NCBI GenBank assembly: GCA_963774955.1
Contig: CAVZGV010000003.1
Coordinates: 771-64,770, forward strand
Length of the DNA stretch: 64,000 bases
Reading direction: 5' to 3'
From: Candidatus Falkowbacteria bacterium
Lineage (GTDB): Bacteria > Patescibacteriota > Patescibacteriia > CAIXNZ01
The notes beneath the pieces were generated by a model. The model did no database searches and was not told the origin of the DNA. It saw only the letters and a list, made by a program, of their open reading frames with translations. How positions within the stretch are numbered: position 1 is the first letter of the stretch; the number at the start of each line of letters is the position of its first letter. Positions 7,970 to 63,872 of the stretch are shown one piece after another. The position numbers and the translations under genes are program-made.

Positions 7970-7974
7970 TTATA

Positions 7975-32447: not shown

Positions 32448-33248
32448 ATGTTTGATACACCAAACCCACAATCAGGCGGTATGCCGCCACGGCAAGCTAT
32501 GCCGCAACCAGGCGCTCCTAGGCCGGCTCAGCCAGGGCAGCCGGCACCACGACCAATGCAGGCTGGTCCGGCTCCCAGACCAATGAAAGAGCCAGAAGAC
32601 ATTTTTGCCGGCATCGGCGGAGGTTCGAGAACACCACAACCGCCATTAACGCCTGAAGTCAGGCCAGGGAAGGGCAAGAAAGTGTTATTAATTATTTTAC
32701 TTGCGGTTATCATTATATTGCTTGGAGTTGGCGGTGTTTTGGCTTACCTTAGTTTTGTGGCTCAGCCGACACAGCCAGTCGATAACGATAATATGAATCT
32801 GCCCCCAGTTGATATTACTTTGCCCAATATCAATGATAATGAAAATATGAACTTTAATTTCAATGATAATTTGAACGCAGGTTTGAATCTAAATGACAAT
32901 CTCAATATTAATGATAATTTGAATGCTAATTTAAATGACAATCTTAATATCAATGATAATTTGAATGTCAATTTAAACACTAATTTAAATGACAATCTTA
33001 ATATCAATGCTGCTCTTGATTCTGATAATGATGGACTGACTGATGAACAGGAAATAAACCTTGGCACTAATCCGCAAAGCCCGGATACAGATAATGACGG
33101 TTTATTTGATAAGGAAGAGATTGAAAATTATATGACAGATCCTTTGAACTCAGATACTGACGGTGATGGCTACTTAGATGGCGATGAGATAAAAAACGGC
33201 TATAATCCCAATGGCCCCGGCAAATTACCGGAGCCTCTGGTGCCTTAA
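32448..33248 (+). CDS. Small bitopic membrane protein F. It has a Pro-rich cytoplasmic N-terminus, one TM, extracellular Asn/Leu-rich hexapeptide repeats and three bacterial TSP3-type Ca-binding repeats.
   Basis: TM VLLIILLAVIIILLGVGGVLAYL. Repeats NDNLNINDNLNANLNDNLNINDNLNVNLNTNLNDNLNI. Ca-binding repeats DSDNDGLTDEQE..GTNP, DTDNDGLFDKEE, DTDGDGYLDGDE..GYNP. Confidence 0.65.
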   Translation: MFDTPNPQSGGMPPRQAMPQPGAPRPAQPGQPAPRPMQAGPAPRPMKEPEDIFAGIGGGSRTPQPPLTPEVRPGKGKKVLLIILLAVIIILLGVGGVLAYLSFVAQPTQPVDNDNMNLPPVDITLPNINDNENMNFNFNDNLNAGLNLNDNLNINDNLNANLNDNLNINDNLNVNLNTNLNDNLNINAALDSDNDGLTDEQEINLGTNPQSPDTDNDGLFDKEEIENYMTDPLNSDTDGDGYLDGDEIKNGYNPNGPGKLPEPLVP

Positions 33249-33353: not shown

Positions 33354-34445
33354 ATGTTTAATCAACCAAAAAAAGGCGTAGCAACTCAACCTCAAGAAAA
33401 AGCAAAAACAGATCCTTATGAAATGCATGTTATGCCGGCAAAATTTCATCAGTATTTATCTCCCAGGAAAAAAAGCAAATTCGGGAAATTTCTGCTTGTT
33501 TTCGTGGTAATTTTTCTGGTTTTAGCCGGGATGGCTTTTGGCGCTTATTATTTATACACGTCCTTACAACAAGCTGCGCCGTCGGTCATTAATCAAAACA
33601 GCCAGCCAGCGATTCCGAATATTAATCTTAATCAAAATCAGCCTGAAGAAAACCTGAATCAGGTCAATGAAAATTTAAACACTGATATTAATCCCGACAT
33701 CAATGATGATAATGTTAATGAAAATCTCAATAGTAATGAGAATTTGAACATTAATATTAATCTTAATGAAAATTTAAACATTAATGAAAATCAAAATACT
33801 AATGAGGCTTTAAATCTCAATATTGATGTGCCTATTCTTATAAATTATAGTAGCAGTGCTGATGCTGATTTGGATAGGCTGACAGATATGGAGGAAGACC
33901 TTTACACTACGGAAAAACGAAAGCCTGATACTGACGGAGACGGTTATTTGGACGGCGATGAAATAATCGGTGGCTATAACCCCAAAGAAGGCGGCGGTGC
34001 GTTATTGGCTAATTCCGGCCTGGTCAACAAATATTCCAATCCGCTTTTTAGCTATGAAGTTTTATACCTTAAGGATTTTCTGGCCAAGCCCACCGATTCC
34101 AGTCTGAGTGAAGTAATTTTTCAGTCCAGTACCGAAGAATATTTTATTCTTAGCGTTGAGAGTAATCCAGAGGCAGTAGATTTGGTCAATTGGTATCTGA
34201 CCCAATCGCCCGGAGTCAACTTGAATGATTTAGAAAAAATTACCACTAAAAAGGGATATACTGCGTTAATAAGTCCGGATAGGCTGACGTATTATCTTCA
34301 GGTTGCCGATAAGCCCGATCAGGTTTTTATGATTAGCTATAATATTGGGACGCTCAAAGCGGTAAATTTTTTGACTACTTTAGAGATGATGGTGAATAGC
34401 TTTAGTTTCGTTGTTAATTCAAATGCGGACGCCAACATGCAGTAA
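33354..34445 (+). CDS. Paralog G of F. Same layout, plus a ~180-aa C-terminal domain of unknown function.
   Basis: TM FLLVFVVIFLVLAGMAFGAYYLY. Repeats NLNQVNENLN...NENLNININLNENLNINENQN. Ca-binding repeats DTDGDGYLDGDEIIGGYNP. Confidence 0.65.
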   Translation: MFNQPKKGVATQPQEKAKTDPYEMHVMPAKFHQYLSPRKKSKFGKFLLVFVVIFLVLAGMAFGAYYLYTSLQQAAPSVINQNSQPAIPNINLNQNQPEENLNQVNENLNTDINPDINDDNVNENLNSNENLNININLNENLNINENQNTNEALNLNIDVPILINYSSSADADLDRLTDMEEDLYTTEKRKPDTDGDGYLDGDEIIGGYNPKEGGGALLANSGLVNKYSNPLFSYEVLYLKDFLAKPTDSSLSEVIFQSSTEEYFILSVESNPEAVDLVNWYLTQSPGVNLNDLEKITTKKGYTALISPDRLTYYLQVADKPDQVFMISYNIGTLKAVNFLTTLEMMVNSFSFVVNSNADANMQ

Positions 34446-39130: not shown

Positions 39131-41173
39131 ATGGGTAAAATTACCAAAATCAAAAAACGTGATGACCGTATCGTTGATTTTGATCTAGCTAAGATTGAAG
39201 CCGCCATTTATAAAGCTATGGAAGCTGTAGGTGATCCTAATCGCAAAAAGGCAGCCAAGCTGGCATTACAACTGGAAAAGGAAGTAAATCATAAATTTCA
39301 TGAACGTACTATTCCGGCAGTGGAAGAAATCCAGGATATAGTGGAAGAGGTTTTAATTAAGGACAAACAAATTAAAACAGCAAAAGCTTATATTATTTAT
39401 CGCGAACAGCATGCTCAGATCAGGAATTTGAAGACCTTGATTGATTCTGACGCCTTAATGGAAGGTTATTTGGTCCAGAGTGACTGGCGGGTCAAAGAAA
39501 ATAGTAATATGGCTTATTCTTTGCAGGGTTTGAATAATCACGTGTCTTCGGCTGTTTCGGCTCATTACTGGTTACATAAAGTTTATCCTCAGGATGTGCG
39601 TGATGCCCATGGCACTGCTGATATCCATATTCATGATCTGCAGACTTTGGCGGCTTATTGCTGCGGCTGGGATTTGCGTGAATTATTAATGAAAGGTTTT
39701 GGCGGGGTGGAGAGCAAGGTTACTGCCAGGCCAGCCAAGCATTTTCGAACCGCTTTGGGACATATTGTGAATTTCTTTTATACTTTGCAGGGTGAAACCG
39801 CCGGTGCTCAGGCTTTTTCCAGTTTTGATACATATTTAGCGCCTTTTATTGCTTTTGATAATTTGGATTATAATAATGTTAAACAGTGTATTCAGGAATT
39901 TTTATTCAATATGAATGTGCCTACTCGTGTCGGTTTTCAAACTCCATTTACCAATATCACCATGGATTTAGTCGTACCTGAAATGATGAAAGACGAGCCG
40001 GTAATTATCGGCGGTAAGTTTCAGGATAAAACATATAAAGAATTTACCAAGGAAATGGAAATGATTAATTTGGCCTTTACTGAAGTCATGACTACGGGTG
40101 ACGCTAACGGCAGAGTTTTTACCTTTCCAATTCCGACTTACAATATTACCAAAGATTTTGACTGGAATAATCCGGTAGTTGAAAAAATCATGGAAATGAC
40201 CTCAAAATACGGTATTCCATATTTTTCCAATTTTGTCAATAGCGACATGAAGCCTGAAGATGCGCGTAGTATGTGCTGTCGTCTGCGCTTGGATAACCGT
40301 GAATTGAGAAAAAGAGGCGGAGGTTTATTTGCGGCCAATCCTTTGACCGGTTCTATCGGCGTAGTAACGATTAATCTGGCCCGGCTGGGTTATGTGGCTG
40401 AAGATAAAAATGACTTTATTGCCAGACTGGAAAAGATTATGATGACCTGCAGGCACAGCCTGGAATTAAAACGCAAGGTGGTAGAAAAATTTACTGAAGA
40501 AGGCTTGTATCCCTATTCCAGATTTTATTTGCAGGATATTAAAAGTCGTTATGGTGAGTACTGGAAAAATCATTTTAATACCATTGGCATTAATGGCATG
40601 AATGAAGCGGCTATAAATTTATTGGGTCAGGACATTACAACTACGGCCGGCCATGAATTTGCCAGAGATATTTTAGATTTTATGCGGGAAAAATTAATGG
40701 ATTATCAGATTGAGAGCAATAATTTATATAATTTAGAGGCAACACCGGCCGAAGGCACTTCTTATCGTTTTGCCAAGGCAGATAAACAGCGTTATCCCGA
40801 CATTGTCTGCGCTAATGAAAAAGCTTATCGCGAAAGAGGGGCTGAACCTTACTATACCAATTCTTCCCAATTACCTGTAGATTATACCGATGACATTTTT
40901 GCGGCGTTAGATTTGCAGGATGATTTGCAAACACGATATACCGGCGGTACTGTTTTTCACGGTTTTATCGGAGAACGCATGCCGTCTTCGGAATCAACAA
41001 AAAATTTAGTCAGAAAAATTGCGGAAAAGTATCATTTGCCATATTTTACTGTTACTCCGACTTTCAGTGTCTGTCCGGTGCACGGTTATATAAGCGGGGA
41101 ACATTTTTTCTGCCCCAAATGTGATGCAGAAATTGGATATGTGGAAAATACCACCCAGGCATTAGCAGCTTAA
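39131..41173 (+). CDS. nrdD: Anaerobic (class III) ribonucleoside-triphosphate reductase, main body. It has an N-terminal ATP cone and ends after the C-terminal Zn ribbon, without the glycyl-radical motif.
   Basis: ATP cone KIKKRDDRIVDFDLAKIEAAIYKAM. The core includes CCRLRLD. The C-terminus ...SVCPVHGYISGEHFFCPKCDAE... then stops. The expected RxxGY / NWNKGK segment is missing from this ORF. Confidence 0.75.
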   Translation: MGKITKIKKRDDRIVDFDLAKIEAAIYKAMEAVGDPNRKKAAKLALQLEKEVNHKFHERTIPAVEEIQDIVEEVLIKDKQIKTAKAYIIYREQHAQIRNLKTLIDSDALMEGYLVQSDWRVKENSNMAYSLQGLNNHVSSAVSAHYWLHKVYPQDVRDAHGTADIHIHDLQTLAAYCCGWDLRELLMKGFGGVESKVTARPAKHFRTALGHIVNFFYTLQGETAGAQAFSSFDTYLAPFIAFDNLDYNNVKQCIQEFLFNMNVPTRVGFQTPFTNITMDLVVPEMMKDEPVIIGGKFQDKTYKEFTKEMEMINLAFTEVMTTGDANGRVFTFPIPTYNITKDFDWNNPVVEKIMEMTSKYGIPYFSNFVNSDMKPEDARSMCCRLRLDNRELRKRGGGLFAANPLTGSIGVVTINLARLGYVAEDKNDFIARLEKIMMTCRHSLELKRKVVEKFTEEGLYPYSRFYLQDIKSRYGEYWKNHFNTIGINGMNEAAINLLGQDITTTAGHEFARDILDFMREKLMDYQIESNNLYNLEATPAEGTSYRFAKADKQRYPDIVCANEKAYRERGAEPYYTNSSQLPVDYTDDIFAALDLQDDLQTRYTGGTVFHGFIGERMPSSESTKNLVRKIAEKYHLPYFTVTPTFSVCPVHGYISGEHFFCPKCDAEIGYVENTTQALAA

Positions 41174-41358: not shown

Positions 41359-41499
41359 ATGAACACAAGATTACAACGCACACCCTGCGAAGTTTATTCT
41401 CGGATAGTTGGTTACATCCGCCCTGTTAATCAGTGGAACAAGGGCAAACGCGCAGAATTTACTGACAGAAAAGAGTTCAACAAGCAACTAGCCGGGTAG
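41359..41499 (+). CDS. Stand-alone glycyl-radical domain mini-protein, the detached C-terminal radical domain of NrdD (46 aa from the RBS-supported start).
   Basis: MNTRLQRTPCEVYSRIVGYIRPVNQWNKGKRAEFTDRKEF carries the NrdD glycyl-radical signature R-I-V-G-Y followed by NxWNKGK..E..DR. A strong RBS AGGTGGG sits 6 nt upstream of the ATG at 41359. Confidence 0.6.
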   Translation: MNTRLQRTPCEVYSRIVGYIRPVNQWNKGKRAEFTDRKEFNKQLAG

Positions 41500-41592
41500 A
41501 GTTCTTTCAAGGTTCGCCTAAGCTTTGATTAGCTGAAGACAAAATAGCTCGGGTGAGCAAGGGAGGGGTCAAATATAGTTCTTTAAATAATA

Positions 41593-50524: not shown

Positions 50525-53500
50525 ATGTCTAAATCAGCGGAAACAAAATATTCCCAAACCACAATTTCAATTTTTGTTTTAGGTTTGGTTCTGACTTTTA
50601 TTTGCGGTGTTGTATTTTTTCTACCTCAGCCGGTTTTGGCTGTGCCGGTAATCCCTGCGACCGGCACCATGCCGTCTACTGACACATTTTTGAATTTGAC
50701 CCAGGCCAATTATTCGGTAAGTGAAGCCGCAAAATTTACTTTTCTACAATCATTGGATGAAACCACGGCATATTTTTTTAATACAGCTTTGGCTTCAGTT
50801 TTAAATGATATTGCCAGGCAATCAGCCACTTGGATCGCCACTGGCGGTGCCGGCCAAAAACCTCAATTTTTAACTGATCCGCATTACTGGGCCAAGACCT
50901 ATGATGCCCAATTGGGCGGTTTGATCCAAACAGCCCTGCAAAGATGGCTGCCTTTTAATATTTGTGATTTTGATCCTAAACTGGCTATCAACCTTACGTT
51001 GTCCAATCCTTTTACCCTACCGCCTGAATCAGAAGGCCAAGTGCCGGGTAATCCTGGTAAAACCTGTAGCTGGACGGAATTGCGTGATAAATGGACGGCT
51101 TTTTTTGCTGATCCTTTGAAAACTTTTCAGTTCAATTTGAGTCAGGGTTCTGGCAGTCTGGGTTCTCGAACTACTGATTTAAATACCATGGTTTTGGATA
51201 ATTCAATTCTGGGTAAATGGGACCAAAGATTTTGTAATAGCAGTCAGCCGGCGCCGGTCACGGCTTGCGATAATAAAAGTTTTGTCTCTGCTGATTATTG
51301 CCCGGCAGTAAGTCCCGGCGGAACTCAAGTTTTAACTACTTTGTATGCTACTCCGCTGACGACTCAGGATATAATTTGTACTCAAGAAAAAGAAATTCAA
51401 AAATTTCTTGGAGAGTATGTTAAAAATATTAATGATTTAATGGAGGCTTTGCGTTTTGATCTGGATTTCGCAGTAAATTGTAAACAAACTGCAGCCGGTA
51501 TCTCCGGTCAAATGAAAATCTGGAAATTATTGCAGGAGAAGGGACTTAGCGAAACTTATAGTATAACCAGTTTTGATTGCAGTCTTAATGAATTCGGAGA
51601 AGAACAGGTTGCGGAAGTCGGTAGGGCCTATCAGCAGGTTATTGAGTTATTCCGCGGGACTGAAAACGAAGGCATAAAATTCAATATGAGCAATCTGAGG
51701 AAATGCGCTTATGGTAATTATGACAAATTAGCTACGTGTCCGGCAATTTCAGGCGCGGGCACTTCCAGCCAATGGAAAACGCTGGTTGAACAGCTGGGTA
51801 TTAAGCCTTGGGATGATATAGATTTAGCCCCCATTCAATTGGCATATGCCGAACAATTTGAAAAAGATTTTTGCGCGGTGGCCTCAAATCAGGCAGCTTA
51901 TTGCCCGCCAAGCCCGGCTGACACCAACAGCTTAGATAATATAAAAACTGTGCAAATCCCTAATTATGTTGAAGGCAGGTACAAATCCATTTATTATACC
52001 CAGGTTAAAGAAAAGACTGATTATGTAATTAAAATCATTGAGACCATGGATAGTTATTACGGTGAAATAAGCAGGGAAGTGGCCAAGAATTTTGCGCCCT
52101 CAAATTGGGCTGATGCGGCTGCGTATGATGCTGGTATGGCCAAAGAGTATTTCAGTGATGTCAAAGAAACTCAGACACTTGATTATGTGACCAAGACCAT
52201 TGCCAATCAGGGCATTGGTGGTTACGTTTCATCTTTATTGCAATCAGGTCTGGATAACGGCTGGGTGGGGCAGACTGAAACAATTTCCGGTAAAAGAAAA
52301 AGTCCGCCGTCATTAGTGGAAAATCAGGCTAAAGAATCAATGACCACAACCTATAAGGAACAGGTAAAAAGTTATACCAAAAATGTTTTAGCTGATGCCT
52401 GGGCTATTTTTCAGGCCACTTTATTCGATGAATTAACCAAGAATCTACTGGCCAATCTTTTTTCCAGCAAGACTCAGTCCCAAGCAAGAAATCAAGCTAA
52501 TGTCGTGAAAAAAAGCGCCACTGAAGTTTTGCCGATTAAAACGCTGAGTCCTTATGAACAGGAAATCAATACTGCCGAAGGTTTTGCTGATTATGCCCAA
52601 AAAACCGTGGAAAAATATGCTGCCAAAATCGCTTCAGGGGCTGATTTAAATCTGCTTTTGGATTTTCAGATGACGACTGCCAATACAGCTAATCCCAATT
52701 TATATAACGGAGTTATTGATAAGAACTTTGTTCAGGCGATTAACCAAAAAATGACTATTGGCGAAGCCATGGCTGACGGTAAATTAGTGGCTAACCGTAA
52801 ATTTTCTTGGGATGGAGAGCTTGCAGATAATACTTATAGTTTGGATAATATTAAAAAATTAAGAAAGGCGCGGGTGGTTCCCTTGGGTCTGGAATTAGCC
52901 ATAGAACTTATTCGTGATTGTAAATACAGACAAGGTCTGGGGTTGGGCGATTTTAGTGATATTAATTTTAACGGCGGTAATCCTGATGGCTTTAATGATC
53001 CGTTGCAGCCGTTTAAAACTCAAAGGCTGCAAAATTGTATATTTAGAATTCCAAATAGCGTAGAGACGGAACAATTAGCTAAGGACTATAATAGTCAAAA
53101 ACTTAATCAGGTAATTGAGGCCAATCTGGATGATGTTGTCAATGGCTTTAATCAGGTCGGTTCCGGAATTTGCGGTGATTTTGATTTTGGGGAATCACCA
53201 TTCTGTAATTTGGTTGATCCTAACTGGGTGCTGAAAATTCCGCCCACTCGCTGCGGTTTGAAATCAGACACGCCGTTATGGGGAGAAGTGATTCAAAGTA
53301 ATGAATCCGGTCAGCGTTATGATTATTGCCCGGATTTTATGAGTTGTCTGGAAGAAGACGGTAAGGGCGGTTGTATTAATGATCGTTACGGCTATTGCGT
53401 CAAAGAACAAAATCTCTGGCAGTTTGGTTCCGGTTATTGCCCGGCTGCTTTTACCAGCTGTAAAAATTATACTTTAGTTACTTCAGCCGGTGATTTGCCC

Positions 53501-56500
53501 GTTTCCTATCTGAAAAACACTTTGTCAGGCAATGATATTTGCGGGCCAAATAACGCAGGCTGTTTGTGGTATTCCAGTAAATATGCCGGCGGCTTTTGGA
53601 ACAGCGACCAGAGAATTTATTTAAATCGTTATGTTGCAAGTTGTGACCGTACCGCTGCCGGCTGTACTGCCATGTCTTTATATCGCGATCCGGCTAACAA
53701 TCTGGTGCCTGATTCTTCGTTTGAATACACTAAAGCTAATTCTTTCCCGGCTAATTGGGAGTTATATTTAAAGCAGGATATAACCGCCCAGGCGTCTCCG
53801 ACTTGTGCGGGTACAAATTATGCCAGCTGTTCCAATTATAATTATGCTTTATTGCCGGCAACTACGCAGACTGATGTAACTATCAATCAGCTTGCATGTC
53901 TGGACAATGGCGGTACCTGGGAGAATATCTGTTCTGACACAACGAAAGTTACGGAACAGGAATGTACTGATGCCGGAGGAGTTTGGGGCAATAGATGTTC
54001 AAACGCTTCTAAGATTGTTGATCTGGCTGACTTGGCCGGAGAAAAAACTGATTGCATTGCTAGGGAGGGCACTTTTAAACAGTATTGTTTAACCAGTATT
54101 TTAAAATATGATTTATGTTCAAACCCTCAGTTCAATGATATTGAGGGTGGGGATTCTGCTCAGGTGCAATGCGAAGGTCATGGTGGTACCTGGAAAACCG
54201 AGTGCCAGACAGAAGCCGGGATTATACCTGAATTAAGCGCCAGTGGGATGCAGGCTGACTGCCAATCTGTCCTCAACGGCGGTAGTTGGCGTGAATATTG
54301 TCAGGGCGCATTACTATATGGTTCCAGCCGTGACCAGTGCTTGAAGCTGCAGGGTGAGTGGCGTGGTTATGGTCCTTTTAGCGATGTAGCTAAAGTCAAT
54401 AGTGACGCTATTTTAACTTTGGACGGTGCTAATAAATTAGAAATCGATATAAGCGGCTTAACAGCTGATCAGCAATTACAGCTTATGTACCGCAGCCAAT
54501 TTCAGGAATTGAATAAGAGTTTAACTAAAGCAGGTGATGTGTATACAGCGACTGCTTATTTACGGGCCAGCCATTCGCTTTATCAGCCAATAACTTTCAG
54601 TTTGTCCAAGACTCCGCCGACTGAATTAAACAGTCAAAATGTTGTTTTATATGATAATAATATTCAGGCTTCCAGTACGCTGGTGACCACAACCTCTGGC
54701 ACAGAATTGGATTTAACTATTACTTTGCCGGGTAATGAGGGCGCCGGCAGTAAAATTTATCTGGACGCGGTTGATCTGTATTTAAATACGGTTGATCAGG
54801 TTACTAATAATGATTTTGTCAGATTAAGTTCTAATTATGACAATAATAGCAAAGTATATTATAAAATACCGCCGCAAAGTCTGGCTTGTCGGGGTTATGG
54901 ACCGGGTGATCCACCCCCTGTGCTTAAAGGGTTAACCAATAGCACTATGTGTAACGGTTATTGGGATGAAAGTGGTATTTTTACGGGCATTAAAAATATT
55001 TGTTATAAATATGGACCTGATAATGATGCTTGTAATGATTATACGAAAGTCTGCGAGGCTGAAGAGGTAGGTTGTCAGCTGTACAATCCTCAAAATAATG
55101 ATCCTGAAGTCCCGGGCGTTATTGCGACCACTGATTTTTGTCCGGCTGAATGTGTCGGTTATAATACCTATACTCAGGAGCCGACTTTGTACGATCCCAA
55201 GCCAGAGCCTTTATATAATTACTTTATTCCTCAAACAGCCAGTGCCTGCAGTGTTGACCAGGTTGGCTGTACTCAATTTACGAATTTGGATGCAGCGACT
55301 ATTGGCGGGGAAACCGTTCAGTATTTCACTTATCTCAAACAATGTATCAAACCGAACCTGGGGCTGGGTGAAAAATTCTTCTATTCCTGGCCGGGTTTGG
55401 ATCGTCCGCTTGATCCTTCTCAGATCATAAAATATGAATTTCAGGCAGATTCAAACGGTGCTCCCAAGCTTTTTGATGATTTGACTTATACTGATGATTT
55501 GCAGAAAGATTGTCGTTCTTCTTTGGGTAGTGCTGATTTGTATTGCGTTAAATTTTATGATGATAACGGTATAATTTATTATCGTGATATCCGCAGGGTA
55601 ATCTCGGTTTCAGCGAATTGTCATCCATATTTAAAGAGTTTACAGGCTAATGCTTCAGCTGAACGGCTGATAATTGAGCAGAAAAATTGCACCATAACTA
55701 ATGGCCGCTGGCAGGCAGTCGGAGGTCAGGATGGCTGTGTTTATGACGCCATTCCCAATGAAGGGCTTCAATGTCAGGCGGCAAATAATGGCTGTCGGGC
55801 TTATATCGGCAATCGCGGCAATAATGTTTATGTTACTTTGTTTGATACTTTTGAAGATACCGATTCTTTAGACTGGTATTCTGGGGAGACCGGTTTGACA
55901 ACTTCTGGGCTGACCAGATCAGGTGAATCAGTGGCGGTTGGCGGTCATTCCATGCAGGTAGCAGCAGGCGTCAGTATCATTCATAACTATATTGATATTG
56001 AGAAGGGCGAGGTTTATACTTTGTCTTTCTGGGGTAAAACTTCGGATCCGGCCGGCAATGTTTTAGAAATTAAATTCAGCGGCGCACCTGCTGATCAGGC
56101 CTTTGCGACCATTGTTTCTCAGAAAGTCAGACTGACTTCAGACTGGAAAAATTATATAATAGGTCCGGTTAATATTACCTGGGATGGCTTGGAAAATAAT
56201 AGTTTAATATTTAACGGTATTAACGGCCAGATTAATCTCGACAATATTTTGCTTCGGGTTGTTCGTGATAATGTTTATGTGGTTAAAGACAGCTGGGTAA
56301 CGCCGACAAGTTGTGATCGTAATATTTACGGCCGGATTGAACCGCAAAATCCTCATCCAATGCTTGGCTGTCAGGCTTATGCCGATCCTTATTCCAGAAT
56401 TTATAATTTGAAATCGTTCAGCAGTTTATGTCGAAATAGCGTGGTTGGCTGTGAGCTTTTATTTGATACTAAAAATTCTCAAAATCCTAATAGTCAGAAA

Positions 56501-59500
56501 TATAACGAGGACACTGAGTCAAGCCTGGACGATGTGCAAATTCCGGCTGATAATTTAATCAGCGTGGTTTTGGATAGCAATTTTACCTGTAGTCCTGCCG
56601 TTAAAAGTTGTCAGAGACTGGGCGTGGCCCTTAATGCCAATACGGCCCAGCAAAGCTTTGCTGACATTTATTTACTAAATGATCCAGATAAATATATCAA
56701 TGTCCCCAACGCAATTTTATGTAATGATCCTGCTTATGGCTGCAGTGAATTGGTCAATGATCAGGGTATCAGTGAATATTATAAAATTGAGCCGAATAAA
56801 CTTTGTGCTTATTCCAAGGGCGAAGCCAATACTGGCAGGCCTGAAGGTTGGTATAAAAAGAACTCCAATTTCAGTTTAGGTTGCGGTTCCTTTGATATTT
56901 CCGAAAATCTTAAATTATCAGAAGCTGACTGTCAACTTAAAGGCGGACGGATTAGTACTAATTATAACCAATGCGTGGCTGTTTTATCAGGAGTCAGCAA
57001 GGTAGAAGATTGTACCAGAGTTAAAGGTGAATGGCTGGCCGGTGAAAAAATTTGTTTGGCTTGGCCTTTCAGTATTTATAAAACTTATGAAGCCAATAAA
57101 TTTCAGGGCTATATCGGCGAATGTGACTCGGCTTTTTCCGGCTGTAATGCTTTTACAGATATCAACCCCAATTTTATTTTTAATAGTAATTTTGAATCAG
57201 TCGGCGAAAACAACAGTGTTTCTGCCTGGCAGAGCCGTTTTACCAGTTCCGGCGGCAGGTTATTTGAAACTGCCAGCGCTCGGGCCGGCAATCAGTCAAT
57301 TAGATTGATCAAACGTACGGCTGCTGATTGTCCGGAGACTGCCACCGCGCCCGGCTGTACTGCCCAGCCTTATGCTTTAAATCAGCAAATCAGCAGATTG
57401 GAAAAGGGTAAAACTTATAAGATTAGTTTTTATTATCGTATGCCGTCTGATTCGAGCGGTCGAGGTGAAACTTGCGAAAAGCCGCAGGCAGCTATGACTT
57501 TTAATCCGTTAGGTTATTGTTTGAACAGTACTTATCAGACTGAAACCGCCTGCAGTACCGGCGGTTCCAGCTGGGTAGCCTTGCCCAAAGAGCAGCTTTA
57601 CGTATTTGAGCCTGAAAGCTCCTGGAAAAAAGTCGAAGCTTATTACACTGTGCCTTCCGGTCGTTGTGGTGATGAGATTCACACCAATCAAGCTGAGTGT
57701 AATGCTGCCAACCAAACCTGGACAGAATATAATTTCTTACTGGATTACGATCTTAGTTTATATGCGCCGTTAAACGGTTATTGTTTGGTCGGTAATAAAA
57801 AAGTGTATCAGGATTCAAGCTTAAACTGGATTTTAAATCAGTCTGCTTGTACTTCGTTAGGCGGTACTTGGCAGGGGAATTGTCCGGAATCATATGTCCT
57901 CTATGATTTGGTGGAAGTAAAAGAAGACAGCGAGGATAATTATTCGGTTATTGATGATGATGTTAACATTAACCGTTCCAGCTGTAATGGTGTGGTTAAT
58001 TGGGATAATGGCTGTGTACAATTTTTAAATAATAATTATGATTCCTTTGAGATCCTAAAAGTTCAGCGTGACAGAAAATGTGAACAATGGGCAGTCTGTG
58101 ACAGTAATTGCAGTGATCCCCAATATAAAATCAAGGAAGATTGCGAGAATAATCAGAAAATCTGGGATACTAATATCTGTACAGCCACTAATTTGTGCCA
58201 GGGTTCGGCCTCTGATGTCTGCACCACTTATGCTCCCAAAAAGGATAATGTGCGTTATGACCTGGCCGAACAGCCTTTGGAATTAAAACGAATTACCGAT
58301 TCTGCTTTGCATCAGGGTTATATTTACCGTTTTGGCACTGCGGCTCTTGATCGGCTGACCCAGTGGCGTGGCGGGGATTATTCCGGTTATTCTATACCTT
58401 ACCGCTATCCGCTAGAACAGGAATTGAATTTTGATTCAGTAGAGAAATTTGCCACCTATGATCAGATTAATGATTTGGATAATAAAGTGGATAAGGATAA
58501 ACGCTATCTTTTGCCGATCTGTAAAGTCTTCCCGGCTCAAGATTCACCTTTCCCGGCAGAAATGGCCAAGGTTCCCAAATATAAAAATTTACTGAATTTA
58601 TTCAGCCAGAGTTATGAAGTTACTGAACTGGGTAATTTGTGCTCTTATGAACGTGCGGATTTTTCCGGCATGACAGTATATCTGCCTATCTTGGACAGTC
58701 AGAAAGTAAAAAGAGTCTGTTCCAGTCCGGTTTCCAAGCGAGGGTTGGATTGTACTTATGGTGGCGAAGAGGTTTGTAAAATACCAGGCATGAAAAACAG
58801 TGATGTTAATCGTTGTGAGGATATCGAGGATATCAAACAATTTTATGGCATGGAAAACATGTGTCTGGAATTTGACCGTTTAAATCCGCTTTACGGAGAT
58901 ATTTATAAAAATATTTACAATACAGGAATTTATCAGCCATATGCCTGTCTGACATCTTATCCGTTTGGTTCTGATTTATGCCCGATGCATAATTCTCCTT
59001 CAACCTGCCAGACTAATGTTTTCTGCCTTTGGGATACTGATAATGACAAATGTATTTTGAATTTTGCCAGGTTGAAGCCGGTTTTATCCGAAGTTACTGG
59101 TGTGGCTAATGAAATTGCTGATGATTCTCCCAATTATATATTTTTCTCAACTGAAGATGGCAGGCTGAGTCTGGACGGTAAATGTTGTACAGACCAAACT
59201 AGGGCTGTTGCCGGCAATAATACAATTGCCTTGGGTGAAAAGGTAGATCAGGGTGATAATACTTATACTTGCCAGCCAATGTCACTGGGCTCCTATGATG
59301 ACTGCAGGGTAAAAGTGACTGATGTCACAGGCCAGATCAGTGATCCGCTTCAGATTTCGCCTTTTGAAGTGGTCATGTTGTCTGAAGTTAGTCCTGTACC
59401 CGCAGTGCTTAGTGTTGATTACGCTAATTACGTTTTTGCTTCAATGATTTCAGGCCCGATTACTTATCCGGGGGATTGTAGCAGTCCGACCCTTACTGCC

Positions 59501-60226
59501 AACAGCGGTATTAATACTATAGAATTTAAGAATTTGACTGCTGATTTTCATAATAACTGTGTAATTCTAATTACAGATAATAGCGGTAGTGTTCCGGTTG
59601 ACTATACTTTGCTTGTTAGCCCATTTACAGTCGGGGCGATTGAAGAGGTTACTCCGGTATTTACTCCTTCTACCAACCAAACACCGAGTTATACTTTCAA
59701 ATCTCATGTTATGGGAACCATTGCTTATGAGGGTGATTGTACCAATAGCAGTGTCAAGACGGTTACAGCAGAAATGGTCGGCAATGATATTACGCTTGCC
59801 TTCAATAAAATGAGCTTTGGTGTTCACAGTAACTGTAAAATAAAAGTAACCTCGGCCTCGACGCCACCGGTAACATTAACCTTAGCGGTTACGAGTTTTG
59901 AGATTAAAGATATTATGGAAATTCAGGGTATGCCCAACCCGGCCTATCAGCCTACTAGCGTCTATGTTTATAAGTTTCGCTCTGCTTTACCTGGCACAAT
60001 CTCAGTTGTCGGCCCCTGTTTCGCTTCTACCAGTATTGTTATCAAACTAGACGGAATCAATCAGAATTATTCGTTAGACTTTAAAAATTTAGATCCAGGT
60101 ACATACGGTCCGACTCAAGACGCCGCCCATAAATGTCAGGTCAAAGTCACTGATCCATCGGCAGTCGTGCATACGCTTGATGTTTCCGCTTTTCAGGTAT
60201 TTACCGCCCCAGCCTTAGGCGTCTAG
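50525..60226 (+). CDS. Giant surface protein I (3233 aa). It has an N-terminal signal-anchor and a very large Cys-rich ectodomain with at least 3 CBM4/9-like domains, recurring C-x(3-4)-GG[ST]W-x(3)-C mini-motifs and five tandem ~88-aa Ig-like repeats at the C-terminus.
   Basis: Intact 9.7-kb ORF. TM ISIFVLGLVLTFICGVVFFLP. CBM-like NLVPDSSFEYTKANSFPANWE (~53700), FDTFEDTDSLDWYSGE...VYTLSFWGK (~55830-56270), FNSNFESVGENNSVSAWQS...KTYKISFYYR (~57180-57650). Ig-like repeats at 59100-60220, each with GDC...NC.I.VTD. Confidence 0.8.
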   Translation: MSKSAETKYSQTTISIFVLGLVLTFICGVVFFLPQPVLAVPVIPATGTMPSTDTFLNLTQANYSVSEAAKFTFLQSLDETTAYFFNTALASVLNDIARQSATWIATGGAGQKPQFLTDPHYWAKTYDAQLGGLIQTALQRWLPFNICDFDPKLAINLTLSNPFTLPPESEGQVPGNPGKTCSWTELRDKWTAFFADPLKTFQFNLSQGSGSLGSRTTDLNTMVLDNSILGKWDQRFCNSSQPAPVTACDNKSFVSADYCPAVSPGGTQVLTTLYATPLTTQDIICTQEKEIQKFLGEYVKNINDLMEALRFDLDFAVNCKQTAAGISGQMKIWKLLQEKGLSETYSITSFDCSLNEFGEEQVAEVGRAYQQVIELFRGTENEGIKFNMSNLRKCAYGNYDKLATCPAISGAGTSSQWKTLVEQLGIKPWDDIDLAPIQLAYAEQFEKDFCAVASNQAAYCPPSPADTNSLDNIKTVQIPNYVEGRYKSIYYTQVKEKTDYVIKIIETMDSYYGEISREVAKNFAPSNWADAAAYDAGMAKEYFSDVKETQTLDYVTKTIANQGIGGYVSSLLQSGLDNGWVGQTETISGKRKSPPSLVENQAKESMTTTYKEQVKSYTKNVLADAWAIFQATLFDELTKNLLANLFSSKTQSQARNQANVVKKSATEVLPIKTLSPYEQEINTAEGFADYAQKTVEKYAAKIASGADLNLLLDFQMTTANTANPNLYNGVIDKNFVQAINQKMTIGEAMADGKLVANRKFSWDGELADNTYSLDNIKKLRKARVVPLGLELAIELIRDCKYRQGLGLGDFSDINFNGGNPDGFNDPLQPFKTQRLQNCIFRIPNSVETEQLAKDYNSQKLNQVIEANLDDVVNGFNQVGSGICGDFDFGESPFCNLVDPNWVLKIPPTRCGLKSDTPLWGEVIQSNESGQRYDYCPDFMSCLEEDGKGGCINDRYGYCVKEQNLWQFGSGYCPAAFTSCKNYTLVTSAGDLPVSYLKNTLSGNDICGPNNAGCLWYSSKYAGGFWNSDQRIYLNRYVASCDRTAAGCTAMSLYRDPANNLVPDSSFEYTKANSFPANWELYLKQDITAQASPTCAGTNYASCSNYNYALLPATTQTDVTINQLACLDNGGTWENICSDTTKVTEQECTDAGGVWGNRCSNASKIVDLADLAGEKTDCIAREGTFKQYCLTSILKYDLCSNPQFNDIEGGDSAQVQCEGHGGTWKTECQTEAGIIPELSASGMQADCQSVLNGGSWREYCQGALLYGSSRDQCLKLQGEWRGYGPFSDVAKVNSDAILTLDGANKLEIDISGLTADQQLQLMYRSQFQELNKSLTKAGDVYTATAYLRASHSLYQPITFSLSKTPPTELNSQNVVLYDNNIQASSTLVTTTSGTELDLTITLPGNEGAGSKIYLDAVDLYLNTVDQVTNNDFVRLSSNYDNNSKVYYKIPPQSLACRGYGPGDPPPVLKGLTNSTMCNGYWDESGIFTGIKNICYKYGPDNDACNDYTKVCEAEEVGCQLYNPQNNDPEVPGVIATTDFCPAECVGYNTYTQEPTLYDPKPEPLYNYFIPQTASACSVDQVGCTQFTNLDAATIGGETVQYFTYLKQCIKPNLGLGEKFFYSWPGLDRPLDPSQIIKYEFQADSNGAPKLFDDLTYTDDLQKDCRSSLGSADLYCVKFYDDNGIIYYRDIRRVISVSANCHPYLKSLQANASAERLIIEQKNCTITNGRWQAVGGQDGCVYDAIPNEGLQCQAANNGCRAYIGNRGNNVYVTLFDTFEDTDSLDWYSGETGLTTSGLTRSGESVAVGGHSMQVAAGVSIIHNYIDIEKGEVYTLSFWGKTSDPAGNVLEIKFSGAPADQAFATIVSQKVRLTSDWKNYIIGPVNITWDGLENNSLIFNGINGQINLDNILLRVVRDNVYVVKDSWVTPTSCDRNIYGRIEPQNPHPMLGCQAYADPYSRIYNLKSFSSLCRNSVVGCELLFDTKNSQNPNSQKYNEDTESSLDDVQIPADNLISVVLDSNFTCSPAVKSCQRLGVALNANTAQQSFADIYLLNDPDKYINVPNAILCNDPAYGCSELVNDQGISEYYKIEPNKLCAYSKGEANTGRPEGWYKKNSNFSLGCGSFDISENLKLSEADCQLKGGRISTNYNQCVAVLSGVSKVEDCTRVKGEWLAGEKICLAWPFSIYKTYEANKFQGYIGECDSAFSGCNAFTDINPNFIFNSNFESVGENNSVSAWQSRFTSSGGRLFETASARAGNQSIRLIKRTAADCPETATAPGCTAQPYALNQQISRLEKGKTYKISFYYRMPSDSSGRGETCEKPQAAMTFNPLGYCLNSTYQTETACSTGGSSWVALPKEQLYVFEPESSWKKVEAYYTVPSGRCGDEIHTNQAECNAANQTWTEYNFLLDYDLSLYAPLNGYCLVGNKKVYQDSSLNWILNQSACTSLGGTWQGNCPESYVLYDLVEVKEDSEDNYSVIDDDVNINRSSCNGVVNWDNGCVQFLNNNYDSFEILKVQRDRKCEQWAVCDSNCSDPQYKIKEDCENNQKIWDTNICTATNLCQGSASDVCTTYAPKKDNVRYDLAEQPLELKRITDSALHQGYIYRFGTAALDRLTQWRGGDYSGYSIPYRYPLEQELNFDSVEKFATYDQINDLDNKVDKDKRYLLPICKVFPAQDSPFPAEMAKVPKYKNLLNLFSQSYEVTELGNLCSYERADFSGMTVYLPILDSQKVKRVCSSPVSKRGLDCTYGGEEVCKIPGMKNSDVNRCEDIEDIKQFYGMENMCLEFDRLNPLYGDIYKNIYNTGIYQPYACLTSYPFGSDLCPMHNSPSTCQTNVFCLWDTDNDKCILNFARLKPVLSEVTGVANEIADDSPNYIFFSTEDGRLSLDGKCCTDQTRAVAGNNTIALGEKVDQGDNTYTCQPMSLGSYDDCRVKVTDVTGQISDPLQISPFEVVMLSEVSPVPAVLSVDYANYVFASMISGPITYPGDCSSPTLTANSGINTIEFKNLTADFHNNCVILITDNSGSVPVDYTLLVSPFTVGAIEEVTPVFTPSTNQTPSYTFKSHVMGTIAYEGDCTNSSVKTVTAEMVGNDITLAFNKMSFGVHSNCKIKVTSASTPPVTLTLAVTSFEIKDIMEIQGMPNPAYQPTSVYVYKFRSALPGTISVVGPCFASTSIVIKLDGINQNYSLDFKNLDPGTYGPTQDAAHKCQVKVTDPSAVVHTLDVSAFQVFTAPALGV
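59100..60220 (+). repeat. Five tandem Ig-like coding repeats (~255-270 nt each) at the C-terminus of protein I.
   Basis: Repeated units ...ISPFEVVMLSEVSPVPAVLSVDYANYVFASMISGPITYPGDCSSP...NNCVILITDNSGS.. / ..VSPFTVGAIEEVTPVFTPS...GDCTNSS...SNCKIKVTSAS.. / ..VTSFEIKDIMEIQGMP...GPCFAS...HKCQVKVTDPS... Confidence 0.65.
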
Positions 60227-60341
60227 ACCAAGCCCAACTTTATAACCTTATTCTAAAATTAACATATGGGACTCAAATTCCGGAATAAAATTAAAAAAAC
60301 ATCTGCGAATCTCGGCTTTTGTCTTTGTATTTTTCGGTAGC

Positions 60342-63300
60342 TTGTTTTTAGTAAATAATGCTTTAGCCGCTCCATGTGTATTACCTAATAAATGTTTGGG
60401 AATTTGTCCAAGTGGTTCAACCCCATTAACAACCCAGACTTGTACAGCACCAGAAGGAAGCATGGATGTAGCAAGTTGTTGTCCACCAGTGGCTTGTCCT
60501 ACAGCTCAAGGTTATTCTTGCAAGGCTTCGACTACCTGTTCTGATTTAACCAAGTTTGATGTCTTGAATCCGACTGACTGTGAAAATACCGCTGGTAATA
60601 TTTGCTGTAAGGAAAAAGTTGCGTCAGATGGCGCTGCCTGTCAATCTTCGACTGATGCTACTAAAACTGGTAAATGCCAGGCGATCGCTTGCACGTCAGC
60701 TAATCCAGAAATTAAACCTGTAAAAACAGCTTGTCCTACGGGTAACTTTTGTTGTACTACGGCAGCTGCTGCTACCCAGGCAACCTGTAAAGATGCGGGT
60801 GGCACCTGTAAGGATAAAGATGCAACTTCCGGTAAATGTCCGGGAGAGGAACAGCTAATTGCAACGCAGAAAACCTGTAAGGAGTCTGGTGATGGTAAAG
60901 ACAATCAGATTTGTTGTAAAGCTGCGGCGTCTACTGCCGGTGATCAGTCTGGTGCAGGCGGGGGAGATAGCGGTGGTGGCTCTGATCCGTTTACCAGAAT
61001 TTTTAATATTTTCATTGCTTGTCTGACTTACAGTATTTCGTTGCTGATTCATTTGGCCGCCTGGTTAGCCGGTCAGATCGTCGTGCTTTTAATGGAAGTT
61101 TTGGTTTTTATTTCCGGTTATAACAGTTTTATCAGAAATTCCTATGTCAGCGAAGGCTGGCGCATCTTGCGCGATCTGGTCAATATGTTTTTCGTGCTGG
61201 GTATGCTTTTTATCGCCTTTGCTACGGTTTTAAAAATTGAAAAATATTCCTGGAATAAGCTTTTAGGCAAATTACTGATGATGGCGGTTTTGGTTAATTT
61301 CAGCAAAACAATCTGCGGTCTTATAATCGATTTTTTTCAGGTGTTATTAATGACTTTTGCCAATGCGTATAAAGATATCACTGCCGGTAATATTTTTTCC
61401 GGTTTGGGTATGGTGGATTGGTTCAAAGTCCAGTCTCAGGCTGTGGCCGGAAATGTTTCAGCCGGTGTCCAGCTGGGCATGATTGCTTCCGCCTTTTTGG
61501 GACTTATTCTGGCCATTGTGTCCATGATTGTCATTTTTATATTCTGCGTGATTCTGATCGTCAGGATTGTCGGTTTGTGGGTTTTGGTGACATTTTCACC
61601 CCTGGCGTTTTTTGCCTATACTTTTGAAGGCACTAAAGGACTGGGGACTATTTCTTCCACCTGGTGGAAAGAATTTTTGGAATATTGTATGGTCGGCCCG
61701 TTTGTGGGTTTTATTTTATGGATTTCCGTGGCAACACTGCCCAAGCTTGATGTTAACCAGATGATACCCGGTAGCTGGTATGATACCAGTAAAAGAGAAG
61801 GCTTACAGGTGACTTTTTCCGAAGCCGGCAGTATGGATAGGATTTTAAAGTATATGATGTCTATAGTCACCATGATTGTCGGGCTGGGTTATGCCAAGAA
61901 ATTCAGTATTATCGGCGCCAGTGCTTTATCAGGCGTAGCTGAAAAATTCAAAGATCAGACAGTGGGCCGGGCTCAGCGTTTTGGCAAGTCAGCTGGAGAG
62001 ACGGCCATGGCTCCGGTAAAAGGTGCCATGAAAGGTGTCGGTGATGCTATGCGTGATAATAAATATTTAAGGTATATGACCACTGAAGGCCGTAAAGAAG
62101 CAGCTCAGGTTCATGAGGCAAATGCGCGCGGTAAATTCGGTCCGCGGACAGGTGAGAAGGAAAGAATGATGCGGCAGATTACTGAGGCGGATGTGAAAAG
62201 ACTGGATGCGCAACAAGCATTTGTCAATCCCAACGCGTTTAACGGGAAATTAAAAGAAGCTTTTGACAAAGGCGATTACAGAAATGCCAGAGCCTTGATG
62301 AATGAAGGCGCCAAAAAAGGCTGGATCGGCACAAATGATATTGATACATTTAAGGATAAATTCCGCGATAAAATGGGTGACAAGGCACACTTTGAATTTA
62401 CTGAGCAATTAGGCAAAGATTTCAAAGAGGCAACCGGCAGACATTTGCGCACTAATGACGAATATATTTCACCTGAAGGTAAGGTCATGAAAAAATCAGA
62501 TTCAGTGGAAAAAGAATACAAAGATGCAGTCGGCAGAATGAGCGCCAGTCAGCAAAGCGATATGGCGGAGAATTCTAAAGTATTTAAAAATGAAAATGGT
62601 AATAATAAATATTGGAAAGAAGATATCCTTGCTTTTACCGGCAATGAAATGAATTCCGGCCGTTGGACTCAGAAAGCCAGAAATAATATGCGCGACGGTA
62701 TTGATGAAATCAGAAAAGATCCCAACAAGATGAAAGAATTCACTAAGGATCAGCTCCAAGATCTTAATGTTTTGTATGAAGCGGCAACCGCAGAGTACGA
62801 GGGTCTTAACCGCTCTAAGGATGCAGCTGGCAATAAGTCTCAAGGTAAGGTGGCCTTTAATCATCAAGATTTAATAAATGATCCAAGCCGCGGTATTGAT
62901 TTGACAACTGCTGGCACAAACGGCGCAACTGCAGTCTCAGATGATGACATTGATCATTTAAAACCCAAAGAAGATGAAGGGGCGCCATTATTACCGACAA
63001 GAATTCCAGGAGCGCCTCAAGCGCCAGCTTCCAGGATTTTTGATGTTTTAGGAAAGAAAACGAGTGACAGACTTCTGGCTGCTACGGGTAAACCCGTTAC
63101 CAGAACAGCTGAAGCTGCTAGTCGTTTTGGCAGGCAAGTAATTCAATTTGCTAAGAAAAAGCCGTTCAAAACAGGAGAGGAAGGGTCTTATGTTCCTCCA
63201 GAAGCCAAGAAAATTGGCGGTACCGAAGGCATTAGCGATGTTGATGTTAATACAATTATTGATGAACAAGGCAGGGATGGTGTTTTACAATTTGAAGATA

Positions 63301-63872
63301 AACAAGGCAATTCAAGAATGACAGCTGCTGGAACTTTTTCCGCTCAAAATAGAGAAATCGCCATAAAGGCATTAACTAAAGAGTTGACAGATAAAGGTGT
63401 CAGAGCAGATGCAGCAAGTAATAAAGCCGGACAAATGGTCAGGTTTAAGGAAGATGAATATAAACATCAACAAGGTGTTCAAAATGTGCATGAGAATGTA
63501 CTTGTAAATATCGATTTAGCCGGAGGCAATTCTCCAGCGAGTATTAATGATCTTAATCAACAGGCTAAATTCGTTTATGGAGATACTGATAAGGAAAGAG
63601 CAGTAAAAGCGGCCAATGTTAATCAGTCTGATATATCTAAAGCAATTCATGAAGTCAGCAGCGCCTTTGATAAATACCAGTCTGAATTAACTAAACGTGG
63701 AGTAGAAATGGATCAAGCTGCAGCTGCCCAGGTCCAGGCTGCTTTAGCTGATATGAGAAATCAAAGTCGAACTACGAAAAATTTATCCGGTCAAGAAAAG
63801 ATGACCATGGTTGATAATCTTACAATTACGGTTGCGGCAATGCAGGATGGCATTTTATTAAAGAAAAAATAA
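60342..63872 (+). CDS. VirB6/TrbL-like polytopic membrane protein J (1176 aa ORF). The true start is probably the ATG at 60266, giving a complete signal peptide if the A7 run is read as A6. It has an N-terminal Cys-rich extracytoplasmic domain, a Gly/Ser linker, a ~450-aa core with 5-6 TM helices, and a ~600-aa hydrophilic K/E/D-rich C-terminal domain.
   Basis: TM helices IFNIFIACLTYSISLLIHLAAWLAGQIVVLL, MFFVLGMLFIAFATVL, LLGKLLMMAVLVNFSKTICGLIIDFF, LGMIASAFLGLILAIVSMIVIFIFCVILIVRIVGLWVLVTF, FLEYCMVGPFVGFILWISVATL. This layout resembles TrbL/VirB6-family proteins with extended C-termini. The upstream ATG at 60266 is in the +1 frame and encodes MGLKFRNKIKK, which joins onto HLRISAFVFVFFGSLFLVNNALA|AP. 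Confidence 0.6.
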   Translation: MFLVNNALAAPCVLPNKCLGICPSGSTPLTTQTCTAPEGSMDVASCCPPVACPTAQGYSCKASTTCSDLTKFDVLNPTDCENTAGNICCKEKVASDGAACQSSTDATKTGKCQAIACTSANPEIKPVKTACPTGNFCCTTAAAATQATCKDAGGTCKDKDATSGKCPGEEQLIATQKTCKESGDGKDNQICCKAAASTAGDQSGAGGGDSGGGSDPFTRIFNIFIACLTYSISLLIHLAAWLAGQIVVLLMEVLVFISGYNSFIRNSYVSEGWRILRDLVNMFFVLGMLFIAFATVLKIEKYSWNKLLGKLLMMAVLVNFSKTICGLIIDFFQVLLMTFANAYKDITAGNIFSGLGMVDWFKVQSQAVAGNVSAGVQLGMIASAFLGLILAIVSMIVIFIFCVILIVRIVGLWVLVTFSPLAFFAYTFEGTKGLGTISSTWWKEFLEYCMVGPFVGFILWISVATLPKLDVNQMIPGSWYDTSKREGLQVTFSEAGSMDRILKYMMSIVTMIVGLGYAKKFSIIGASALSGVAEKFKDQTVGRAQRFGKSAGETAMAPVKGAMKGVGDAMRDNKYLRYMTTEGRKEAAQVHEANARGKFGPRTGEKERMMRQITEADVKRLDAQQAFVNPNAFNGKLKEAFDKGDYRNARALMNEGAKKGWIGTNDIDTFKDKFRDKMGDKAHFEFTEQLGKDFKEATGRHLRTNDEYISPEGKVMKKSDSVEKEYKDAVGRMSASQQSDMAENSKVFKNENGNNKYWKEDILAFTGNEMNSGRWTQKARNNMRDGIDEIRKDPNKMKEFTKDQLQDLNVLYEAATAEYEGLNRSKDAAGNKSQGKVAFNHQDLINDPSRGIDLTTAGTNGATAVSDDDIDHLKPKEDEGAPLLPTRIPGAPQAPASRIFDVLGKKTSDRLLAATGKPVTRTAEAASRFGRQVIQFAKKKPFKTGEEGSYVPPEAKKIGGTEGISDVDVNTIIDEQGRDGVLQFEDKQGNSRMTAAGTFSAQNREIAIKALTKELTDKGVRADAASNKAGQMVRFKEDEYKHQQGVQNVHENVLVNIDLAGGNSPASINDLNQQAKFVYGDTDKERAVKAANVNQSDISKAIHEVSSAFDKYQSELTKRGVEMDQAAAAQVQAALADMRNQSRTTKNLSGQEKMTMVDNLTITVAAMQDGILLKKK

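Follow-up and report, generated by a model that had tools for sequence, protein, structure and literature searches.

The frame break at the start of a VirB6-like gene in a Patescibacteria contig is most likely an assembly artefact and not a phase-variation switch

Gene J extends on the + strand from ATG 60266 to TAA 63872 of the 64,000-nt stretch of DNA analysed here (referred to as the window), and would encode about 1,201 aa after repair of the frame break described below. The gene upstream of it on the same strand, at 50525..60226, encodes a giant secreted protein of 3,233 aa, and in relatives the two genes likewise form a syntenic pair. Around the gene J start, and between gene J and the upstream giant gene, we found nothing resembling a promoter or a terminator, and searches of the whole window for tRNAs and Rfam families returned none. 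The window is a segment of a Patescibacteria (CPR) chromosome, with der, lepB, hisS, rpsU, ybeY, ftsA, ftsZ, nrdR, nrdD, nrdG, htrA, a release factor gene and ksgA; further genes in it encode several giant secreted proteins, and two have VirB2-like pilin domains.

The two pilin-domain genes (T4SS_pilin/TrbC domain) lie upstream of gene J at 5004..7514 and 8440..11028. Their 5' parts, including about 70 nt of upstream sequence, are 96-100% identical to each other and their 3' parts 84% identical; the repeat pairs are 4814-5299 with 7545-8735, and 6584-6865 with 10698-10979. The arrangement looks like a recent tandem duplication, a pilin-gene array as described for Patescibacteria. Elsewhere in the window, nrdD (39131..41173) ends just past its Zn-ribbon CPKC motif, and the glycyl-radical C-terminus (MNTRLQRTPCEVYSRIVGYIRPVNQWNKGKRAEF...) is found in a separate small ORF, in another frame, about 190 nt downstream (region 41171-41500). 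Stops occur in every frame of the sequence between the two, which gave no Rfam match, showed no unusual fold stability and is not repeated elsewhere in the window; a split gene, insertion of an element or a defect of the assembly could each account for the interruption. Degenerate tandem repeats of 12/18 nt at 32814-33035 and 33666-33830 encode Asn-rich stretches (N-x-N-[LI]-N-D type) that belong to adjacent TSP3-repeat (calcium-binding) proteins, 32448..33248 and 33354..34445, respectively.

As deposited, the ATG at 60266 opens an ORF of 24 codons, MGLKFRNKIKKTSANLGFCLCIFR (60266..60340, + strand), which is ended by TAG 60338-60340, a stop that sits 1 nt to the 5' side of a TTG at 60342. The main frame of gene J is open from 60246 through TAA 63870-63872 (1,209 codons), and ATG 60266 is offset from it by one base. 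From 60300, the main frame reads HLRISAFVFVFFGSLFLVNNALA with AP following; within it, the h-region ISAFVFVFFGSLFLV comprises 15 residues with a mean Kyte-Doolittle hydropathy (KD) of 2.57, and an A-L-A cleavage motif comes next. A run of seven A residues, confirmed in the deposited sequence, occupies 60293-60299. The preliminary description of this DNA was accurate as to the A7 run and in separating ATG 60266, by a frame break, from the frame that bears the signal peptide. It had also allowed for a start elsewhere that would supply a signal peptide; a search of 60246-60341 for canonical in-frame starts (ATG, GTG or TTG) yielded none, the earliest being TTG 60342, and we rejected the latter as the start of gene J, as it leaves just 8 residues ahead of the cleavage site.

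Loss of one A or gain of two would join ATG 60266 to the main frame, so that an A6 or an A9 tract would return the ATG to the reading frame of gene J. The earlier statement that this fusion arises only if the run is A6 does not stand, since any one-base deletion across 60269-60302 gives the same fusion and the scan described below prefers 60269-60277. The start region is AT-rich (28% GC), and past the break gene J has 1,176 open codons, with no further lesion in 3.5 kb.

By simple criteria the segment encoded one frame away from the ATG is a signal peptide, with an n-region of net charge +4 (or +6), a 15-aa h-region, and small residues at -3/-1 (A-L-A before A-P). The end of the n-region together with the h- and c-regions occupies 60300..60368, and cleavage is predicted between 60368 and 60369. 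It is followed on the + strand by a Cys-rich extracytoplasmic N-terminal domain (60369..60986), which is common to P0002/L001, P0003, P0007 and P0023 and which is mostly of low confidence in the AF2 model, with short strands; by a conserved, putatively VirB6/TrbL-like polytopic membrane core (60987..61904), in which the invariant columns are concentrated and AF2 helices span residues 230-535 at pLDDT 85-95; and by a long charged helical C-terminal region that ends with the TAA stop (61905..63872). Mean pLDDT of the AF2 model is 74.7, and residues 2-20 are helical. The signal peptide would thus be expected to export the Cys-rich ectodomain, ahead of the helical membrane core and a long cytoplasmic tail.

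Homologs of gene J number about 300, nearly all of them from Patescibacteria. The window protein itself matched 0 Pfam families; 1 of 30 aligned homologs matched PF04610 (TrbL, E=1e-5), and several homologs bear precomputed PF19590 or PF04610 tags. The top five Foldseek matches in the PDB were chains of the R388 stalk complex (8rtd_L, 8rt9_F and 7o3v_F/G/J), all weak, with E from 3e-3 to 7e-2 and TM (target) of 0.38-0.48; from their chain length we take these chains to be TrwI/VirB6. The window stops short of the genes downstream of gene J, and the neighbours belonging to a type IV secretion system (T4SS) were read from the loci of relatives. In both L001 and L002, the order is giant protein gene, gene J ortholog, a protein of ~480 aa, PrgI (VirB3-like), a TraC-like protein and a VirB4-type ATPase; in L004 the same giant gene lies upstream, and PrgI lies downstream ahead of the end of the fetched locus. 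A 2025 survey lists VirB4, TrsD, PrgI/VirB3, VirB6 and VirB2-like pilins as the Patescibacteria T4SS set (PMC12102498). On the basis of the gene set at the orthologous loci, the fold matches and that survey, we call gene J a putative VirB6-like polytopic membrane protein of the Patescibacteria T4SS.

The same break is evidently present in the public record. An entry 100% identical to the window protein, P0001, has its annotated start at an internal Met (MDVAS..., ATG 60462) and a length of 1,136 aa, corresponding to window 60462-63872; the first 65 residues, and with them the signal peptide, are missing from it, and we attribute its internal start to the frame break. Public annotations of this family are often truncated at the N-terminus. 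P0002 is annotated from residue 116 (L001 position 2494), and the ORF at L001 2149-5811 is intact and includes the signal peptide; since that ORF is intact from ATG 2149, the short annotation of P0002 reflects a choice in start calling. P0008 is without a signal peptide and has a clean ATG at the first membrane helix. We considered whether 5' frameshifts recur among the orthologs and rejected this, the P0002 ORF being intact and P0008 clean.

To place the surplus base, we compared the gene J start with those of three relatives. Identity to the intact orthologs is 59-71%, being 71% for L001 (Lac Pavin sediment MAG GCA_026395755.1) and 59% for L002 (Logan unitigs, SRR13958299), and it is about 45% for L004. 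The N-terminal stretches of these orthologs are MEFNSVLKFKKFLWSLAFVFVFFGG (L002), MEFNSRIKFNKYLYVF... (L001) and MGFILKIKFKIV... (L004). The close orthologs share a homologous ATG start in the context ATATGG[GA]A and continue in a single frame throughout. Since all of them begin at the homologous ATG and read in one frame, ATG 60266 (60266..60268, + strand) is the ancestral start codon of gene J, as the preliminary description had assumed, and the window has one surplus base.

Two kinds of alignment place this base within the first codons. MAFFT introduced a single-base gap at ATGGGACTC-A-AATTCC, the relatives reading ATGGAATTT-AATTCC. We also performed a gap scan, in which each base was removed in turn and the result compared without gaps to L002 and L001. 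Deletion at 60269-60277 gave 32/45 nt and 7/15 aa identical to L002, and 30/45 nt and 7/15 aa identical to L001, whereas deletion inside the A7 run, the worst placement in the scan, gave 27/45 nt and 5/15 aa (L002) and 26/45 nt and 5/15 aa (L001). Over the 16 nt that separate the candidate sites, L002 was matched at 12/16 positions in the main-frame register and at 7/16 in the ATG-frame register, the latter being the chance level for such composition. Main-frame codons 7-10 of the window, ATA-AAA-TTA-AAA, correspond to CTA-AAA-TTT-AAA (L002), ATA-AAA-TTC-AAT (L001) and ATA-AAA-TTT-AAA (L004), such that the pattern [AC]TA-AAA-TT[TCA]-AA[AT] is common to the three relatives and the window main frame. 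At the peptide level, codons 7-10 of the relatives specify [LI]-K-F-[KN], and the window main frame reads L-K-K-H through A7; to the 5' side of and across the run it reads ...N-S-G-I-K-L-K-K-H-L-R.... After repair in codons 2-4, residues 4-9 are NSGIKL, to be compared with NSVLKF (L002) and NSRIKF (L001); the repair proposed earlier gives KFRNKI. The repaired N-terminus is equal in length to those of P0003 and L001 and aligns with them gaplessly, HLRISAFVFVFFGSLFLVNNALA being colinear with FLWSLAFVFVFFGGLFFAGTALA of P0003.

The gap scan, the register and the codon 7-10 matches together favor MGLNSGIKLKKHLRISAFVFVFFGSLFLVNNALA (or MDSNS...), with AP following the cleavage site, as the best repair, with A7 in frame. 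The surplus base probably lies within codons 2-4 (60269..60277, + strand), in the GGG run (60268-60270) or the AAA run (60275-60277), and we infer the exact base within this 9-nt zone. Behind this placement stand three relatives, two at 59-71% identity and one at about 45%, compared over a short A/T-rich stretch of low complexity, and the margins are modest at 4-5 nt and 2 aa. One surplus base in this zone would put ATG 60266 out of frame. The A7 run would remain in frame as TTA AAA AAA CAT (60291-60302, L-K-K-H), an ordinary consequence of encoding the lysines of the positively charged n-region as AAA, and would have no switching role. The repaired product would begin with a Sec-type signal peptide, whose most likely sequence is M-G-L-N-S-G-I-K-L-K-K-H-L-R-ISAFVFVFFGSLFLV-NNALA with cleavage before AP. 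The suggestion that A7 splits the signal peptide is thus not upheld, the comparison having put the surplus base ~20 nt upstream of the run.

It could be argued that the surplus base is nonetheless in the A7 run, the true length being A6 and the deposited length a consensus error, such that the intact gene starts MGLKFRNKIKKHLRIS.... No other run from the ATG to the signal-peptide core is as long, it is in long runs that errors of long reads and of polishing classically arise, and an A7 run is likelier a priori to be affected than a run of 3 bases; the A6 repair gives an equally valid signal peptide. Also, distant homologs (P0010, P0016 and P0044, with MLKxFKNKK or MGLKLRK) resemble the MGLKFRNKIKK that would result. 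We rejected the choice of a repair by means of distant N-termini, which are uninformative since they are rich in K and N and of low complexity, and each frame resembles some family member. Against an error in the run are the lower identity to L002 and L001 in the gap scan at both nucleotide and amino-acid level, the fit of codons 7-10 of the three relatives to the main frame and not to the ATG frame, and two observations on the window at large: all of the errors that we could map are in runs of 4 bases or fewer, and the other + strand A7/A8 runs break no intact ORF outside the indel-dense patches described below (those at 1219 and 3522, inside the patches, being excepted). We therefore regard a length error in the run as unlikely.

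Does the run itself have the properties of a switch? A7/T7 matches are depleted in the window, with 45 found and 93 +/- 14 expected from dinucleotide-preserving shuffles, and the longest homopolymer run anywhere in it is 8. Among coding runs of six or more A residues, 13/74 fall within the first 60 nt of genes (29 genes), a 6.4-fold enrichment (p=7e-7). Envelope genes are among those with such 5'-proximal runs, and so are the genes encoding ribosomal protein S21, NrdD, KsgA and HtrA; the remaining 12 of these runs are all in frame. No long A-run is present at the homologous position in L002, L001 or L004, which carry A5, AATAAG and A4; the codons homologous to the tract are TTTAAAAAG (L002), TTCAATAAG (L001) and TTTAAAATT (L004). 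Across the family, the N-terminus takes the form M-x-K-x-x-K-N-K-K followed by a hydrophobic helix, with an n-region motif K-x-K-K or K-N-K-K, and lysine is encoded as AAA in this genome of 40% GC. From the enrichment in housekeeping genes, the in-frame state of the runs, the K-rich n-region and the relatives without the tract, it follows that a 5' A-run is the norm here and not the mark of a switch.

We also looked for other alleles of the same species. Searches of genome and metagenome contigs for the exact pattern with a variable A-run gave 0 matches, for a pattern in which the GGACTCAAATTCC part was fixed as well and which could thus have missed a corrected allele. A back-translated AFVFVFFG[GS]LF pattern gave 0 matches over the metagenome contigs, and a protein scan of genome contigs recovered just the L001 genome and a Buchananbacteria. 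In the DNA and protein scans combined, nothing above 71% identity was found beyond the source's own P0001.

The preliminary description had proposed slipped-strand phase variation. On this reading, A6/A7 (or A9) toggling in the population would turn the VirB6-like protein on and off, and the OFF state would be the one assembled. The tract does lie within 12 codons of the start of an envelope protein gene, its frame would be restored by A6 or A9, and the arrangement is like the 5' poly(A) A7/A6 polymorphism of Listeria monocytogenes inlA (PMC2831843). However, the frame change maps to the 5' side of the tract, the orthologs are without the tract, A7 is short and A7/T7 are depleted in the window, and housekeeping genes, too, have 5' A-runs in frame. 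Moreover, even the Listeria A7 slips at rates well below those of classical phase-variable loci. Taken together, these observations leave slipped-strand switching very improbable. We know of no contingency-type locus in Patescibacteria, and none surfaced in a literature search; if true, this one would be the first.

Frame breaks are plentiful elsewhere in the window, and they are concentrated in two indel-dense patches, 1-4300 and 35500-37350, where there is about one single-base indel per 170-400 nt. The first patch affects der/engA (1210-70, - strand; at least 4 fragments and at least 3 frame breaks), lepB (2825-3413; 3 fragments, 2 breaks) and hisS (3586-4878; at least 5 fragments, at least 5 breaks), and the second affects ftsA (35258-36573; at least 7 fragments, at least 6 breaks) and ftsZ (36659-37763; 5 breaks). 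In ftsZ, the five frame changes fall within about 540 nt and comprise 3 deletions and 2 insertions, none of them in a run of more than 4 bases. After five single-base repairs, residues 2-314 of the product align gaplessly to residues 3-315 of B. subtilis FtsZ (2VAM) with E=1.2e-117. The genes der, lepB, hisS, ftsA and ftsZ are indispensable and otherwise well conserved, and their breaks are therefore assembly errors. Indels that fragment genes in this way are known from long-read assemblies (PMC12007338, PMC8103633).

Outside the two patches, we counted at most 2 breaks in about 57 kb, and ORFs of 9.2, 9.7 and 5.4 kb are intact. This patchiness suggests unpolished long-read stretches within an otherwise polished or short-read-derived assembly. 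One of the breaks outside the patches is a surplus base at GATGATTGCC, near 20250 (20240-20260), which splits the ORFs 11053..20286 (3,077 aa) and 20177..24487 (1,436 aa). P0123 (3,466 aa) and P0124 (3,771 aa) align unbroken over this junction, from which we conclude that the two ORFs together make up a single giant gene, of about 4,477 aa; isolated surplus bases are thus also found beyond the dense patches. The preliminary description was right to keep an indel error as the alternative to a switch. As regards the homopolymer indel errors that it had reported from elsewhere in the window, the window is indeed rich in indel errors, but these are located in runs of 1-4 bases and not in long homopolymers.

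The gene J break resembles these others in that it consists of one surplus base, in a short run and an AT-rich stretch, with no other damage to the gene, and it is on this resemblance that we rate it as an artefact. A consensus or assembly indel in codons 2-4 is, from the alignments above, the probable cause. One observation points the other way: the gene J break is isolated, with about 22 kb of flanking sequence without another frame break, and if the clean parts of the assembly are short-read derived, consensus error in them would be rare.

The isolation of the break may instead be taken in favor of a real frameshift, fixed or in the majority of cells, which would make gene J a recent pseudogene or knocked-out allele with no reversible switching. 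The second isolated break, near 20250, strikes another gene associated with the surface or secretion, and genes of this kind are commonly lost or variable in symbionts. Yet the 3.5 kb of gene J bear no other lesion, spontaneous indels are rare in 3-base runs, and on the same contig there are at least 20 frame breaks in indispensable genes; these cannot all be real, so that artefact is the simpler source. In addition, virB6 has been reported to be essential for the epibiotic growth of Ca. Southlakia epibionticum (PMC12102498). A real mutation accordingly seems to us rather unlikely, at about the same level as, or marginally above, a length error in the A7 run.

Finally, the sequence might be correct and gene J expressed by recoding, that is, by a +1 slip on AAA-AAA-A, by slippage of RNA polymerase, or from a near-cognate start. 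On AAA_A, tRNA-Lys could re-pair with a cognate codon after a +1 shift, and bacterial RNA polymerases are known to slip on A/T runs, by which frameshifted genes of endosymbionts are rescued. Near-cognate in-frame codons are present at ATT 60258, ATA 60264, ATA 60285 and CTG 60303, and a start at CTG 60303 or ATA 60285 would still yield a usable signal peptide. On the other hand, we found no stimulator, no SD-like element and no stop flanking the run, and the 0-frame codon after it is ACA, which we presume is not a rare codon. The site is unconserved, the examined orthologs all being plain single-frame ATG ORFs. A7 is short for transcriptional slippage, which to be efficient requires A/T runs of about 9 or more, and near-cognate starts are very rare in bacteria. 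We give recoding hardly any credence.

What is documented here is the offset between the frames, colinearity with the orthologs, an assembly rich in indels and a VirB6-like context; that the surplus base of gene J is an artefact rather than a real mutation is what we infer. That it arose in the assembly, whether in codons 2-4 or in the tract, we hold with good confidence. It is highly unlikely that the deposited sequence is correct and contains a heritable +1 frameshift within the first dozen codons of a VirB6-like gene, with either A7 toggling (as an ON/OFF control of host-contact machinery) or low-level recoding or slippage. Gene J is most likely intact in the cell, and its break most likely an ordinary artefact in an error-prone assembly and no phase-variation switch. 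If the contig were taken at face value, many of its essential genes would be annotated as pseudogenes, and gene loss, pseudogenisation or phase variation inferred from such a reduced genome would mislead. A genuine break would have implications for the regulation, in episymbiotic Patescibacteria, of a T4SS reported essential for epibiotic growth; we found no support for such a reading.

In Listeria monocytogenes inlA, the nearest known counterpart of such a tract, the A7 allele is in frame and the A6 allele is truncated after 8 aa, with tract rates of about 4e-8 for A7 to A6 and about 5.5e-7 for A6 to A7 (Orsi et al. 2010, PMC2831843). Gene J is similar in that its A6/A7 tract falls among the first dozen codons and its product is an envelope protein with a signal peptide, and in that a one-base change leads to a very short peptide. 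It differs in that the inlA polymorphism is documented across strains and lies within the tract, whereas the frame change of gene J is placed to the 5' side of it; also, the polarity is reversed if the break is located in the tract as first proposed, A7 then being out of frame in gene J, and A7 is in frame under the placement that we favor. Like the simple sequence repeat (SSR) contingency loci of Neisseria, Haemophilus, Campylobacter and Helicobacter, gene J has a repeat at the 5' end of a gene for a surface structure. The tracts of these classical loci typically have at least 8-9 units, are hypermutable and often recur across many genes. In contrast, runs in the window do not exceed 8, A7 is under-represented, and the orthologs are without the tract.

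The gene J break can also be compared with the gene-fragmenting indels of long-read and hybrid (meta)genome assemblies. As in those, breaks occur in otherwise conserved genes, both insertions and deletions are found, the affected runs are short, and ftsZ, the giant gene and gene J all align gaplessly after repair; the window departs from them in that its errors are strongly patchy and the gene J break is isolated. With regard to the protein, gene J resembles the VirB6 homologs of the Patescibacteria T4SS (PMC12102498) in its predicted polytopic helical core, whose best, though weak, fold matches are the R388 chains taken to be TrwI/VirB6, in the PrgI/VirB3, TraC-like and VirB4 genes of the orthologous loci and in the pilin genes nearby. 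It differs from the VirB6/TrbL family in being far larger, about 1,200 aa, with no Pfam match, and in its predicted cleavable signal peptide, 200-aa Cys-rich ectodomain and 650-aa charged C-terminal tail.
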